Below, one piece after another: positions 43,388 to 51,933 of a stretch of DNA of 64,000 bases. Origin of the DNA: Bordetella parapertussis. GTDB taxonomy: Bacteria; Pseudomonadota; Gammaproteobacteria; Burkholderiales; SG8-39. The notes beneath the pieces were generated by a model, which saw only the letters and a list, made by a program, of their open reading frames with translations, was not told the origin of the DNA and searched no databases. Positions within the stretch are counted from its first letter, which is position 1, and each line of letters starts with the position of its first letter. The position numbers and the translations under genes were made by a program. The stretch covers positions 543 to 64,542 of the forward strand of contig CAMAXP010000008.1 of NCBI GenBank assembly GCA_945862265.1, read 5' to 3'.

Positions 43388-43481
43388 ATTCTAGCCGGGG
43401 GCGGGCCCATGCGCCCGAAACCGGCCGTGGACCGAGGGCAATGGTGAAAGAGTGTCAGGATTGCGTCCGGAGTGTGACTTA

Positions 43482-43497
43482 CTGCACATCCGGACAG
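43482..43497. promoter_or_regulatory. Candidate LexA (SOS) box in the uvrA / peptide-operon divergent intergenic region
   Basis: TACTGCACATCCGGACAGGA contains CTGC-N8-ACAG, one mismatch from the CTGT-N8-ACAG consensus. On the uvrA strand it reads CTGT-N8-GCAG. Confidence 0.35.
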
Positions 43498-43505
43498 GAA
43501 TCAGG

Positions 43506-43535
43506 TTGACCCACGATACCTCTTGTTCATACAAT
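43506..43535 (+). promoter_or_regulatory. Strong sigma-70-type promoter of the peptide operon
   Basis: TTGACC (43506-43511), an 18-bp spacer, then TACAAT (43530-43535). It sits in a locally A+T-rich stretch about 50 nt upstream of the ATG at 43588. Confidence 0.55.
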
Positions 43536-43587
43536 TAGATAAGAGATTTCAAACGGTACTGCCACTAACCCCGGGGGGGGGCAACAA

Positions 43588-49500: not shown

Positions 49501-49980
49501 CTCGACGGGTTGGCAAAAAGCGGCGCGGCCGTGCTGGCGTATGTTCCCGGTGCAGAAGACGACACGGTGGCTGCTTACACCACTGAATCCATGCGCGTGT
49601 TGCGCGAGCCCGTACGCCTCGCGTCTGTGCTCGGGGACGCCGATCTCGCGGTCAGCAACGCGGGCAATGCCGTGCTGAACCTTTGCCTGCTCTCCGGTGT
49701 GCCGATGCTGCTGCTGCCGTTCCATTTCGAGCAGCGCCTCGCGGCCCTCCGTGCCGAGTCCACGGGCGCCGTGCGCTGGATCCTGAACGATGCGGTCGTG
49801 GCGTCGTTCGGTCCGGTGCTTGCCGAGATGCTCGCCTCGGGCGTTTATTCTGCCCAGGCGCGTGCCGTCGCCAAGAGGAACGCGGGCTACAATGTGGATC
49901 GTGTCGTCGCAACGGTGGCAGACATCGTCGAAGCTGTCGCCGTACCCGGCGGCGACGCCACCGACGCGAGGCACCCATGA
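46567..49980 (+). CDS. C39-peptidase bacteriocin ABC exporter (CvaB-like, aa ~1-700) fused in frame to a GT-B/GT1 glycosyltransferase domain (aa ~729-1137)
   Basis: PVILQTEEAECGLACLAM (catalytic Cys), HWELNHFVVL (His), a six-TM domain, GPSGCGKST, LSGGQKQR, FLFLDE and ITHR. With no stop codon the frame continues into KVVFASELGGALGHL...RRRGHE ... VSNAGNAVLNLCLLSGVPMLLLPFHFEQ. Confidence 0.85.
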   Translation: MSSDFFSLFRRREPPVILQTEEAECGLACLAMCAAALGYETDLLMLRQRHPVSLKGTTLGRLVEIAADLKLNARAVRLEVEELSRLSLPCILHWELNHFVVLVEVNSRGIVVNDPALGRRQYSMEEVGKRFSGVAMELSPRADFQPKVERTRLDLRAFFDNQPGLASAFTQVLLLSLALESFGILLPLINQWLIDDVVVTGDLNLLIVLSVAIFLLLVTLTVTRMLRGWVLLAASITWNLRTSSSVFQHLVRLPVSFFEKRHVGDVLSRFRSVDEIQGTISGNFIETILDGLMAVIALTMMVIYSPKLAGIAVLAGIGYVLVRFAMFGRYRAATEERIVRSATRDSFLYETLRGIPAIKFFSQIGWQVAGWMNRQVAVYNATIVTRKLDLVYQGANGLIRALENSLILFLTIGMILEKSYTIGMMIAFLAFKEQFLTRVVALADRLARFRLLRLQAERLSDIVLTEPENEQPLADHMRIDRDGPIEIELRGVSFRYAPGEDEVIRNISFKLTTTDSIAIVGPSGCGKSTLMKIVSGVLKPEEGEVLVNGIPVSSIGTATYRSLIGTVMQEDHLFSGSIFDNISMFDSAPDDERVALAARRAMIHDDIVIMPMGYQSLVGGMGTNLSGGQKQRILLARALYKEPRFLFLDEYTSMLDYDTEMAVQNSLASLPIGRFVITHRRRNLLPQDRVFVVWEGGILPGHEFDRMFTRLGDPTAAARHGAGSKGTALKVVFASELGGALGHLTRQVPIALQLRRRGHELLFAVRDPSAAEALLAPHRLAWVAAPRPVLTRPLAEHTMVYGDILAEAGFAEPEALLAVVRAWTDIFRNAGADVVVCDHSPAAQLAARLAGLPTVQIGTGFELPPEGDALPVLRTWDAAAAGKRAGVEAGLLAAIRHVCEQSGRPPLARLADLYATDAPLLLTIPEADCFAPRASGRYLGPIHDVAFGRKFDWPSGNRRIFAYLRPEYLRGRESLHAVLDGLAKSGAAVLAYVPGAEDDTVAAYTTESMRVLREPVRLASVLGDADLAVSNAGNAVLNLCLLSGVPMLLLPFHFEQRLAALRAESTGAVRWILNDAVVASFGPVLAEMLASGVYSAQARAVAKRNAGYNVDRVVATVADIVEAVAVPGGDATDARHP

Positions 49981-50855
49981 GCGAAGCCCCCCTTTGTGCC
50001 GCCCACGACCCGAACCCGCGCAAGCCCAAGCTCGCGCTCCCGCCGCTCGCCTGCGACACGCACGCGCACGTGTGCGGGCCGGAGTCGCGATACCCCTATT
50101 GGTCCGGGCGCATCTACACGCCGCCCGACGCGCTGCCCGCGCAGTACCGGTACATGCTGCGTACCCTGGGTGTCGAGCGCTCGGTCTTGGTGCAGCCGAG
50201 CGTCTACGGGTCGGATAACCGGGCGATGCTGGACGCGCTGGCCGCCGACCCGGTGAGCCAGCGCGCGGTGGCGGTGGTCGAGCCGGACATTGCCTACGCC
50301 GAACTCGAGCGCATGCACGCGCTGGGCGTGCGCGGGGTCCGCTGCAACATCGTCGACATCAAGGAGGGCAAGGGACGCTTGCCGATCGAGATGTTGAAGG
50401 CCCTCGCCGACAAAGTGCGGCCGCTGGGCTGGCACCTCGAGTTCCTGATGCACGTTGACGAGTTCCCCGACCTCGACCGCGTGCTGGACGGTTTCCCGGT
50501 CGACGTGGTGTTCGGGCACCTGGGTTACATGAAGACGTCGCTGGGGATCTCCGCGCCGGGGTACCAGGCTTTCCTGCGTCTCATGAAGTCGGGGCGCGCC
50601 TGGGCCAAGCTCACCGGGCCGTACCGGATCTCGGCCCATCCCATGCCGTATGCCGACGTCGCTTCTTTTGCCCACGCGCTGGTCGAGGCCGCGCCCGACC
50701 GCATCGTGTGGGGCACCGACTGGCCGCACGTGGCCGTCAAGGGCGCGATGCCCAACGACGGCGACATCTGCGACCTGCTGTTGGACTGGGTGCCGGACGA
50801 GGCTGCCCGTCGCAAGGTGCTCGTGGACAACCCGGCGAAGCTCTACGGGTTCTAA
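49977..50855 (+). CDS. Amidohydrolase_2-family (LigI-like TIM-barrel) metal-dependent hydrolase
   Basis: MSEAPLCAAH...ACDTHAHV (HxH motif)...VFGHLGY...VWGTDWPH. Its ATG overlaps the ABC::GT stop (ATGA at 49977-49980). Confidence 0.8.
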   Translation: MSEAPLCAAHDPNPRKPKLALPPLACDTHAHVCGPESRYPYWSGRIYTPPDALPAQYRYMLRTLGVERSVLVQPSVYGSDNRAMLDALAADPVSQRAVAVVEPDIAYAELERMHALGVRGVRCNIVDIKEGKGRLPIEMLKALADKVRPLGWHLEFLMHVDEFPDLDRVLDGFPVDVVFGHLGYMKTSLGISAPGYQAFLRLMKSGRAWAKLTGPYRISAHPMPYADVASFAHALVEAAPDRIVWGTDWPHVAVKGAMPNDGDICDLLLDWVPDEAARRKVLVDNPAKLYGF

Positions 50856-50862
50856 CCGCTTC

Positions 50863-51933
50863 ATGCGCAGGATCCTGCACCTCGACATGGACGCCTTTTA
50901 TGCGTCCGTCGAACTGCTGAAGCGCCCCGACCTGCGCGGCAAGCCCGTGGTGATCGGCGGCCGCGGCGATCCCGAGAGCCGCGGGGTCGTCTCCACCTGC
51001 ACCTACGAGGCGCGCGCTTTCGGCATCCGTTCCGCGATGCCCATGCGTACGGCTAAAAAACTCTGTCCCGACGCGATCTTCCTTCCGACCGACTTCGCGG
51101 CCTATCGCCACTGGTCCCATGTCTTCAAGTCAGAGATGCGAGCTTTGTCCCCTTTGTTCGAGGACCGCGGCATCGACGAGGCCTACCTCGACGTGACCGA
51201 CGTGCCGGGCGATTCGGAAGCCATCGGGCGCGACCTGAAGGAGCGCGTGCACTCTGCTACCGGCATGACGTGCTCGCTCGCAATCGCGCCGAACAAGCTG
51301 CTCGCCAAGCTCGGCTCGGAACTCGACAAGCCCGACGGGCTCACGATCCTTGGCTTGGAAGACATCCTCACGCGCATCTGGCCGCTGGACGTTCGCAAGC
51401 TCCAGGGCGTGGGACCCAAGGCCGAGGAGAAGCTGAAGGCGCTTGGCTACCTCACCATCGGCGACATTGCCGCCGTGCCGCGCGAAAAGCTGCGCGAGTC
51501 TTTCGGCGAGTCTTACTCGCGGCATTTGCATGAGACTTCCAACGGCCGCGACGAACGTCCGGTCGTCACCTACCGCGAGCCCAAGTCCATCAGCGCCGAG
51601 ACCACCTTCGAGGAGGACACGCGCGAGTGGCAGGTCATCGCCAAGGTGCTCGCGCGGTATGCCAAGCGCGTCGCGGACGAGCTGAAGGAGAAGGGGTATC
51701 TGTGCTGGACCGTGGGGATCAAGCTGCGGTTTACCGGGTTCGAGCTCGTGACTCGGGACAAGACGCTGCCGGTGGCGACGGATGACCCGCTGGTGATCCG
51801 GAATGCCGTGTTCGAGTGCTTGGAGCGGGTGGAGCTGAAGAAGAAGGTGCGGTTGCTGGGGGTAAGGCTGACGGAGTTGAGGCGGGCGGGGGAGGAGGAG
51901 AAGGTGGGCGGGGAGCAGCTGGAGTTGTTGTGA
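50863..51933 (+). CDS. dinB: DNA polymerase IV
   Basis: MRRILHLDMDAFYASVELLKRPDLRGKPVVIGG... is the Y-family polymerase signature. It starts 7 nt after the amidohydrolase stop. Confidence 0.93.
   Translation: MRRILHLDMDAFYASVELLKRPDLRGKPVVIGGRGDPESRGVVSTCTYEARAFGIRSAMPMRTAKKLCPDAIFLPTDFAAYRHWSHVFKSEMRALSPLFEDRGIDEAYLDVTDVPGDSEAIGRDLKERVHSATGMTCSLAIAPNKLLAKLGSELDKPDGLTILGLEDILTRIWPLDVRKLQGVGPKAEEKLKALGYLTIGDIAAVPREKLRESFGESYSRHLHETSNGRDERPVVTYREPKSISAETTFEEDTREWQVIAKVLARYAKRVADELKEKGYLCWTVGIKLRFTGFELVTRDKTLPVATDDPLVIRNAVFECLERVELKKKVRLLGVRLTELRRAGEEEKVGGEQLELL

Follow-up and report, generated by a model that had tools for sequence, protein, structure and literature searches.

A glycosyltransferase fused to the peptide exporter of a portable double-glycine secretion module suggests a previously unreported route to secreted glycopeptides

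To our knowledge, the enzymes that modify ribosomal peptides are normally separate proteins. In the RaxX-RaxST-RaxA-RaxB system of Xanthomonas, a separate sulfotransferase sulfates a tyrosine of RaxX, a peptide with a double-glycine (GG) leader and a non-antibiotic role, and the outer-membrane factor (OMF) RaxC is encoded at an unlinked site. In the class IIb siderophore microcins MccE492 and H47, the family 1 glycosyltransferase (GT1) MceC/IroB C-glucosylates enterobactin, which is then ester-linked to the C terminus of the peptide by MceIJ, and an immunity gene is present. Class II microcins as a whole are defined by an export route that consists of a GG leader, a peptidase-containing ATP-binding cassette transporter (PCAT), a membrane-fusion protein (MFP) and a TolC-type channel; their N-terminal region carries the activity and their C-terminal region directs uptake, and an adjacent transmembrane immunity protein of at most 216 aa is a further criterion (PMC12219008). 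Here we analyze a peptide-export locus in which a glycosyltransferase (GT) is fused to the exporter, located in a 64-kb window of DNA (assembly GCA_945862265.1, contig CAMAXP010000008.1, positions 543-64,542); all locus coordinates below are positions in this window.

The region 43465-51933 has a G+C content of about 68% and contains six co-directional genes, all on the + strand, with spacings exactly as given in a first-pass annotation of this DNA:

43588-43827, + strand: precursor peptide, 79 aa
43929-45293, + strand: OMF of the TolC family, 454 aa, 101-nt gap after the precursor gene
45310-46557, + strand: MFP of the HlyD/AprE type, 415 aa, 16-nt gap after the OMF gene
46567-49980, + strand: exporter-GT fusion (ABC::GT), 1137 aa, 9-nt gap after the MFP gene
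49977-50855, + strand: Amidohydro_2 gene (LigI-like lactonase), 292 aa, 4-nt overlap with the fusion gene
50863-51933, + strand: dinB (DNA polymerase IV), 356 aa, 7-nt gap after the Amidohydro_2 gene

The domains identified with Pfam and NCBIfam were OEP/TolC, HlyD, Peptidase_C39 with ABC_membrane and ABC_tran, Amidohydro_2 and IMS (Pol IV). The exact OMF, MFP, ABC, amidohydrolase and DinB sequences were also found in public metagenome-assembled genomes (MAGs) of uncultured Betaproteobacteria/Burkholderiales. We favor, with a probability of roughly 0.6, the reading that the first four genes are a portable type I secretion system (T1SS) module in which the tethered GT glycosylates the peptide, that the lactonase and dinB genes are passengers, and that the product is non-toxic to its producer, with metal binding as the favored role.

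The locus resembles that of a class II microcin such as MccV (CvaC/CvaA/CvaB/TolC) in its small GG-leader peptide, C39 ABC exporter, HlyD adaptor and TolC-type channel, and in the combination of a conserved N-terminal region with a variable C terminus. In contrast to class II microcins, the OMF is encoded in cis, there is no adjacent membrane immunity protein, the exporter carries a GT, the core is hydrophilic, disordered and rich in His, Gly and Ser with no sequence similarity, and the host is an uncultured member of the Burkholderiales. The likeness to the glycocins (sublancin, glycocin F and pallidocin; SunS/SunT) lies in a leader peptide that would presumably receive its sugar in the cytoplasm before a C39 ABC transporter cleaves and exports it. 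However, the glycocin GT is a separate GT2 enzyme with a GT-A fold, whereas here it is a transporter-fused GT1 enzyme with a GT-B fold, and the Firmicutes glycocins have a helix-loop-helix structure held by two nested disulfides, whereas the core described here is disordered, contains one Cys together with 21 Gly and 9 Pro among 64 residues, and belongs to a Gram-negative system with an MFP and an OMF.

As in the Rax system, the PCAT and MFP come with a cytoplasmic modifying enzyme, a GG peptide would be modified and then exported, and the product would be a non-toxin without an immunity gene; the Rax system differs in its tyrosine sulfation by a separate enzyme, its unlinked RaxC and its unrelated peptide. 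With the siderophore microcins the locus shares a GT1 in a GG-leader/ABC exporter setting and a Gly/Ser-rich peptide region, but enterobactin, MceD and MceIJ homologues are absent here, and no IroB model was among the NCBIfam matches. In sum, the locus operates in the manner of class II microcin and RaxX-type PCAT systems, and in concept it parallels glycocin biosynthesis; it departs from the microcins in immunity and sequence and from the glycocins in lacking a GT2 enzyme and their disulfides. We found no PCAT::glycosyltransferase fusion, no such peptide family and no association of this GT clade with T1SS cargo described in the searchable literature, which is incomplete.

The fusion protein is divided as follows:

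46567-48696, + strand: PCAT part, residues 1-710, with C39 peptidase, transmembrane domain and nucleotide-binding domain (NBD)
48697-48759, + strand: linker of ~20 aa between NBD and GT, with 45% identity and dN/dS of about 1.4 relative to the sister locus L006
48760-49980, + strand: GT1 (GT-B) domain at the exporter C terminus, with His743, Asp838 and Glu1055 kept

The PCAT part matched Peptidase_C39 (PF03412, 2e-31), ABC_membrane (PF00664, 4.5e-28) and ABC_tran (PF00005, 3.6e-29), and PCAT1 (4ry2) aligned to exporter residues 15-701 at 6.6e-78. The C39 residues Gln19, Cys25, His98 and Asp114 are all present, as are the Walker A (521), signature (625) and Walker B (646) motifs; judged by these residues, this is a standard PCAT of the active type. 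Homologues of the exporter are named RaxB in the JGI annotation.

The C-terminal ~400 aa, when searched alone, gave no Pfam GT model above threshold (PF04101, 15 bits with a cut-off of 22; PF00201, 10.7 with 19.5; and, in NCBIfam, TIGR01426, 33 with 260), and PF06722 was reached by GT homologues and not by the window domain. A profile of the domain and its homologues matched CalG1 (3e-22) and YjiC (1.5e-20) in the PDB, followed by OleD, SpnG and others. The AlphaFold (AF2) model of the domain had a pLDDT of 88.3 and a pTM of 0.87, with a pLDDT below 50 at the N terminus, which is the linker. When this model was submitted to Foldseek, the top 50 PDB matches were all GT1 enzymes (E 1e-17 to 1e-14, TM 0.56-0.75), with CalG1 the best at 1e-17 and with OleD, Kcn28 and GtfD also found. 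By profile and by predicted fold, then, the extra domain is a divergent GT1/GT-B glycosyltransferase with a two-Rossmann fold, in agreement with the GT that the first-pass annotation had placed on the exporter. It shares with the natural-product GT1 enzymes (CalG1, OleD, Kcn28 and GtfD) the GT-B fold, the GxxxGH His with its Asp partner and the C-terminal nucleotide-sugar half. Those enzymes, however, are free-standing and act on small-molecule or non-ribosomal aglycones, whereas the domain described here is 16-24% identical to them, has motifs of its own and is associated with secretion cargo. The family's own invariant motifs are WELG..GH, DHSP, GFELPP, ELD and EQ, and the window domain retains the WELG...GH His (His743), the DHSP Asp (Asp838) and the EQ Glu (Glu1055), which occupy invariant or near-invariant columns of the family.

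Comparison of the window with L006 gave dN/dS values of 0.16 for the C39 domain, 0.18 for the transmembrane domain, 0.31 for the NBD, 0.29 for the GT domain and about 1.4 for the linker. The GT domain is under purifying selection and the linker is unconstrained, so that the enzyme evolves under constraint and its tether does not. An assembly artefact is excluded as the source of the fusion, because the exact 1137-aa protein belongs to a cluster of 30 near-identical sequences that come from independent assemblies, and the same architecture recurs in two more clusters at 73-75% identity (P0087 and P0088). Among 4460 PCAT homologues, the fusion occurs in these three protein clusters only. PCAT homologues of 956-974 aa from Candidatus Thiodiazotropha MAGs (P0132, P0137, P0140 and P0153), which are ~50% identical, have a different C-terminal extension of ~250 aa, and given these proteins, fusions of extra domains to exporters may be more common than the present case.

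We read ten distinct relative loci. The order precursor-OEP-MFP-PCAT, with small gaps, was found in the window, in L006/L007, L008, L009, L096, L097 and L093-95, and in the loci of P0089, P0096 and P0368, and it occupies at least five different genomic contexts. It is flanked by uvrA and dinB in the window, L006 and the P0089 locus; by HupE_UreJ_2, with or without a TonB-dependent receptor gene, in L008 and the P0096 locus; by SspB in L093-L096; by TctC genes in the P0368 locus; and by other genes in L009 and L097. Therefore, the conserved unit is four genes, namely those for the GG-leader precursor, the OMF, the MFP and the C39 PCAT. The OMF matched PF02321 at 1e-36 and TIGR01844 at 6e-47, the latter under its cut-off, and the MFP matched HlyD_3 at 2.6e-15 and TIGR01843 at 8e-42. 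An OEP gene comes after the precursor gene in every family locus examined, so that all of them encode their OMF in cis, and together with the domain matches this bears out the earlier view of a self-contained peptide/OMF/MFP/PCAT system with its own OMF. It had also been proposed that related genomes with adjacent uvrA and dinB genes, and no cluster between them, would define insertion boundaries. The comparison gave the opposite result, in that relatives hold the module in the same slot. The related suggestion that the locus is long-resident holds within the uvrA-dinB lineage; over longer times it does not, and the module is portable, with HupE, SspB or TctC genes adjoining it in distant relatives.

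The module is coupled to the GT clade in more than one way. In three loci (L009, the P0368 locus and L097), two free GT genes lie directly 3′ of the exporter gene. The second of them is of the catalytic type and 48% identical to the window domain. The first (L009 6760-8049; L097 8541-9827) is without the GxxxGH, DH(S/A)P Asp-His and SNAG donor-loop motifs, and its sequence suggests that it may be a non-catalytic partner or adaptor whose job is replaced by covalent fusion. A GT, as a fusion or as two free genes, is present in 6 of the 10 family loci with readable downstream sequence, in three different arrangements, and it is mainly because of this repeated coupling that we regard the peptide as the probable GT substrate. 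The other four family loci have no GT at all, and the nearest unfused exporter, which is 80% identical and occupies the same uvrA-dinB slot, is encoded without one.

The wider GT family was examined with an exhaustive search, which gave 1147 representatives at E <= 1e-30, mostly free-standing proteins of ~400 aa. A scan of genome contigs with the single GT domain alone returned no relative, and a 10-sequence alignment gave the genome loci, of which 80 came from species-representative genomes; the detection of genomic context in these loci was crude, and the frequencies given for them are to be read accordingly. The closest free homologues of the GT lie in operons of the type RTX-GT-OEP or RTX-GT-MFP (L001-L005), where RTX denotes a repeats-in-toxin protein. 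In L001 (932-12695), L002 (2168-12966) and L005 (32-8389), and likewise in L011-L017, L031, L035, L043 and L045, the GT gene is located directly between the gene for a giant RTX protein (HemolysinCabind) and T1SS OEP or MFP genes, often with overlaps or gaps of a few nt. A giant RTX gene adjoins the GT gene in 13 of the 80 loci, including most of the top-scoring ones (L011-L017); T1SS adaptor or ABC genes are near it in 7-8 of the 80, a Calx-beta autotransporter gene was found in 9, 13 are part of a ruvABC synteny block, and no recognizable context was detected in the others. The association of the GT family with secretion cargo is real but partial, and the RTX-GT gene layout suggests cytoplasmic glycosylation of the RTX cargo.

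In Ralstonia pseudosolanacearum, a GT of this family is encoded on the megaplasmid NZ_CP115956.1 (L098 531-10221; genes called by hand), divergently adjacent to a complete T1SS made up of a C39-like ABC protein, an MFP, proteins of unknown function of 185 and 845 aa, and an OEP; similar cases in the Ralstonia solanacearum complex are L032, L047 and L099. Some GT-family members (P0224, P0232, P0286 and L019 7182-9254) have an N-terminal sulfotransferase fusion, with matches to Sulfotransfer_3 at 2e-10 and to Stf0 at 7e-5, and one of the fusion genes has an ABC gene and an RTX gene in its vicinity; tandem GT-GT fusions also occur (P0207 and P0208). A bolder proposal, which we hold only tentatively, is that the family is an unrecognized GT1 clade dedicated to the cytoplasmic glycosylation of T1SS cargo, from GG peptides of 60 aa to RTX proteins of 3000 aa, here fused to the exporter, and that the His-repeat product is a metallophore or a metal-dependent effector without need of immunity. 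If true, the product would, as far as is known, be without precedent as a ribosomal glycopeptide that a Gram-negative T1SS makes and exports.

The precursor consists of the leader MRNLTPEEMLQVSGG (43588-43632) and the 64-aa core RGRHRGRGSYGSGHGSNHGSSHGSSHGSSHGSGCGGTTVTPPPPPPPPTGGGTGGGTGYGTSTP, with the predicted cleavage junction after the double glycine, between MRNLTPEEMLQVSGG and R. The core has a mass of 5.9 kDa and a pI of 10.9 and contains 21 Gly, 11 Ser, 9 Pro, 8 Thr, 6 His, 4 Arg, 2 Tyr and 1 Cys. It has no acidic residues, a single aliphatic residue (one Val), a grand average of hydropathy (GRAVY) of -1.15 and no hydrophobic segment, and it is hydrophilic and disordered. No Pfam or NCBIfam match to the precursor was found at E <= 0.01, and matches to the leader at E 0.2 are at chance level. 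No other GG-leader peptide is encoded across the 64 kb. Homologous precursors were found in the same position in L006, L008, L009, L092, L096 and L097, and the relatives' loci together with a profile search indicate a family of about 14 database clusters, which is uncurated. In the family alignment, the leader consensus is MR(E/T/N)L(K/T/S)(P/A)EE..QVSGG, with an invariant double-glycine signal. The core follows a plan of a Lys/Arg-Gly stretch, 4-8 HGS(G/S/N) repeats, a Gly run and a variable tail of 15-25 residues, which usually has a two-Cys loop and one odd Cys; the tails of the window and of L006 differ in having a tract of 8-9 Pro and a single Cys instead. When the back-translated leader pattern was scanned over JGI metagenomes, four loci were obtained, one being the family member L092 and three encoding an unrelated peptide. 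In these three (L089 5488-5619, L090 546-677 and L091 3290-3421), an unrelated 28-aa core, YVEQCPTPISWKIQAAIDTWFRSWERDF, stands behind the leader MRELTPEEIEQVSGG; because this leader is nearly identical, the leader type is common to at least two peptide families.

The composition of the core bears on whether the product is a toxin. The first-pass annotation had reported no recognizable immunity gene and had suggested that the product might not be a classical membrane-active microcin, and both statements were supported. A six-frame scan of 43300-52300 found no small hydrophobic or membrane open reading frame (ORF) in or beside the cluster, and the called genes of the ten relative loci include no small membrane ORF beside the precursor. 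The only ORF with a hydrophobic window, an antisense Ala/Val-rich ORF of 57 aa at 43549-43722, was rejected as an immunity gene: it mirrors the GGC/AGC/CAC codons of the precursor, and its G+C content at third codon positions (GC3) is 0.62 compared to 0.85-0.93 for real genes. The hydrophilic, disordered core, with its pI of ~10.9 and single aliphatic residue, fits a product other than a membrane-active microcin.

Nevertheless, the locus has features of a class II microcin directed against related Burkholderiales, in which the His-rich N terminus would kill, the variable tail would mediate uptake, and the sugar would tune uptake or stability; immunity would then be encoded elsewhere, or be unneeded since the producer lacks the receptor. 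The GG leader, PCAT, MFP and TolC-type channel are the class II export route (PMC12219008), the leader and N-terminal region are conserved next to a hypervariable C terminus that often has a two-Cys loop, and the distribution is patchy and independent of context. Set against this are the lack of an adjacent small membrane ORF in the window and in the called genes of the ten relative loci, the core without a hydrophobic segment, and the lack of similarity of the precursor to any curated bacteriocin model in Pfam or NCBIfam. We consider a microcin of this kind unlikely.

Gene content, domain identities, conservation and the fusion with the selection on it are direct results of the analysis; for peptide glycosylation, its site and its order relative to cleavage, and for regulation and extracellular role, we infer the following scheme. 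A promoter upstream of the precursor gene would drive the module, possibly with a CRP-type activator, and a terminator after the precursor gene would allow only part of the transcripts to reach the export genes. The 79-aa precursor would dock on the C39 domain through its leader MRNLTPEEMLQVSGG. The GT1 domain, held on a floppy 20-residue linker at the cytoplasmic end of each exporter subunit, would move one or more sugars from a nucleotide sugar onto the disordered, Ser/Thr/Tyr-rich core or onto its single Cys. The C39 domain would cleave after Gly-Gly, and the 64-aa basic glycopeptide, rich in His, Gly, Ser, Thr and Pro, would be expelled via the MFP and OMF. The fusion would replace the sister-locus layout, in which two GT genes, one for a catalytic enzyme and one for a paralogue with degenerate catalytic motifs, come right after the exporter gene. 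Outside the cell, the variable C-terminal tail may give specificity for a receptor or partner, and the His repeats may bind metal.

Several observations weigh against the glycosylated, metal-binding peptide that we favor. The GT domain is below every curated Pfam/NCBIfam GT cut-off, and its donor loop reads SNAGNAV in the window and GxG in relatives, a mild deviation. About 60 of the 80 GT-family loci were without secretion context by the detection used. The peptides of the four GT-less loci carry the same repeats, and therefore the family can do without the sugar; the precursors of loci with a GT could not be told from those of loci without one by any acceptor motif. The case for glycosylation is made by the fusion and the gene neighborhood, and that for a metal role by the composition of the core. 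The precursor has no curated family, and its matches to the His tails of UreE and SlyD are at chance level. The gene for HupE_UreJ_2, which resembles a metal transporter, flanks two GT-less loci only (L008 772-1917 and the P0096 locus), one of them with a TonB-dependent receptor gene; this would hint at a metal role, but the other loci do not show it.

Some of these points would also suit a fused GT that acts on another exported or membrane substrate, such as a lipid, a polysaccharide primer or a small molecule, or that is an inactive docking relic. The closest solved relatives of the domain are all small-molecule natural-product GTs, the domain scores under the curated GT cut-offs, many family members are in housekeeping contexts such as ruvABC, and the family includes catalytically degenerate paralogues. 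However, the catalytic His and Asp are kept and the dN/dS of the domain is 0.29, three independent arrangements link a GT to this very module of peptide and exporter, the C39 domain and its cognate GG leader argue for the peptide as the transported substrate, and the nearest free-standing homologues share operons with T1SS cargo. A substrate other than the peptide, or an inactive domain, is therefore improbable in our judgment.

With the peptide as the favored substrate, its extracellular role is the least certain part of the reading: we would give about a third of the probability to a metal-binding or other non-toxic effector, a quarter or slightly more to an antagonistic peptide, and the remainder to a signal or matrix component. 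Metal binding is favored because the His repeats are regularly spaced. A link to metal through gene context was considered and dropped as unsupported, with HupE_UreJ_2 or TonB-dependent receptor genes at two loci and unrelated genes at the other flanks. It is also conceivable that the peptide is a structural or signaling exoproduct, such as a constituent of the matrix or biofilm, a peptide that nucleates minerals, or a quorum or host-mimic signal, in the manner of EbfG or RaxX. Non-antibiotic GG-leader peptides do exist, RaxX and the cyanobacterial EbfG among them, and the mucin-like, disordered core rich in Pro, Thr and Gly and the absence of an immunity gene would agree with such a role. The EbfG peptides are described as GG-leader biofilm peptides (PMC4997328). 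None of the loci has a linked gene for a receptor kinase or a regulator, however, and the regular His repeats would be left unexplained, which makes a structural or signaling exoproduct rather doubtful.

A PCAT with a GT anchored at its cytoplasmic end would combine decoration, cutting and export of a peptide in one built-in machine, and these results suggest a previously unreported route to secreted glycopeptides. The fusion could serve as a ready-made part for glycopeptide secretion from Gram-negative hosts. The occurrence of the GT family beside RTX giants and T1SS genes, including those of cultivable members of the Ralstonia solanacearum complex and of Methylomonas, points to a little-studied process, the glycosylation of type I cargo in the cytoplasm, for which Ralstonia solanacearum-complex strains would be a tractable system. 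Peptides with His/Gly/Ser repeats, a dedicated OMF and no immunity gene widen the uses of GG leaders and PCATs beyond toxins. The interest of the locus lies in the fusion and in the signs that T1SS cargo may be glycosylated, and not in a six-gene operon.

The control region of the module contains the following features:

43473-43488, + strand: CRP/FNR-type palindrome TGTGACTTACTGCACA, with its center ~61 nt upstream of the inferred transcription start
43506-43535, + strand: sigma-70-like promoter TTGACC-18-TACAAT, 10/12 matches to the consensus
43900-43927, + strand: intrinsic terminator or attenuator hairpin with U-run, AAAAGCCGC-AGAAAU-GCGGCUUUUUUU, the second hairpin of the precursor-OMF gap

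The intergenic region upstream of the precursor gene is divergent, 200 nt long and shared with the opposite-strand UvrA side. The promoter is the sole match of its kind in 43300-52400 and is located in the only A+T-richer stretch; the G+C content is 0.50 at 43490-43587 and 0.64-0.71 within the genes, as expected from the earlier remark that only the promoter region is A+T-rich and that the genes have host-like G+C. The palindrome is the sole TGTGA-N7-CACA match in 64 kb, where 0.23 are expected, and a similar GTGAAT-TATTCAC motif is found at the equivalent place upstream of the precursors of L006 (about 6535-6550), L096 and L093. It is a candidate activator site of the module, its function being judged from the motif. 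Because the GTGAAT-TATTCAC-like palindrome recurs despite different flanks, the promoter region seems to travel with the module. Across loci, the upstream palindromes take the form TGTGA-N6-(G/C)CACA or GTGAAT-TATTCAC. A link to the SOS response through a LexA box was also considered and rejected, as CTGT-N8-ACAG is absent throughout the window. The 101-nt gap, in which a terminator had previously been noted, contains two hairpins, the first at 43838-43898, and RNA folding identified the second as a classic intrinsic terminator; the fold had a dG of -53 kcal/mol and z = -4.9 relative to shuffled sequences. The terminator would set the ratio of precursor to transporter.

The two genes downstream of the fusion were evaluated as possible parts of the system. 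The Amidohydro_2 protein matched PF04909 at 1e-50 and, over residues 11-290, a 2-pyrone-4,6-dicarboxylate hydrolase (PDB 4d8l) at 5.5e-48, and its nearest NCBIfam equivalog is 4-sulfomuconolactone hydrolase at 229 bits (cut-off 500). By these matches, the "amidohydrolase" is a LigI-type lactonase homologue and not a peptide amidase. The gene is absent from the 75%-identical sister L006, where dinB follows the ABC::GT gene after 7 nt, and from all other family loci. Because the stop codon and the 7-nt spacer before dinB are the same in the window and L006 arrangements, the lactonase gene appears to have been inserted cleanly in the lineage of the window. An Amidohydro_2-superfamily gene is located upstream of the precursor in L009 (43-819); it is 28% identical to the window gene over 92 aa, and its co-occurrence is probably coincidental. 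DinB matched NF002677 at 317 bits (cut-off 256). The dinB gene is adjacent in L006 and absent from family loci in other contexts; in the P0089 locus, a RidA-like gene on the opposite strand lies between it and the exporter gene.

The first-pass annotation had counted both genes in the operon and had proposed the amidohydrolase as a means of self-protection. In its full form, this would make the six genes one functional operon, with the amidohydrolase in maturation or enzymatic self-protection and dinB co-regulated. The tight spacing (the 4-nt overlap and 7-nt gap) and the lack of a terminator-like site between the genes make co-transcription likely, and within the cluster of at least 90% identity the Amidohydro_2 gene is conserved beside the exporter gene. 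However, L006 has ABC::GT directly before dinB, no other family locus has the amidohydrolase gene, the L009 gene being a distant relative, the enzyme resembles LigI, and dinB, a neighbor in the uvrA-dinB lineage only, does not adjoin the exporter gene in the P0089 locus, where a gene on the other strand comes between them. A functional six-gene operon is thus very improbable, and a role of the amidohydrolase in maturation or immunity was rejected on the first three of these grounds. The lactonase and dinB genes are passengers and not parts of the module, probably co-transcribed with it by read-through; as a correction to the annotation, they should not be counted in the cluster.

No Rfam family and no tRNA was found across the window. 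Upstream of the module, at 37718-43387 on the - strand, is a gene for a double-length UvrA homologue of 1889 aa with two UvrA-like halves, which is kept in relatives at 1876 aa in L006 and 1930 aa in the P0089 locus. Downstream of dinB is a low-G+C island (0.49-0.63) at 51900-55100 that contains two toxin-antitoxin-like pairs (RelE-like with HTH_3, and HTH_3 with BrnA-like) and two ORFs without a Pfam match. The Ank/TctC/ABC-F genes past the island are syntenic with L006, and for this reason the island looks like an insertion.

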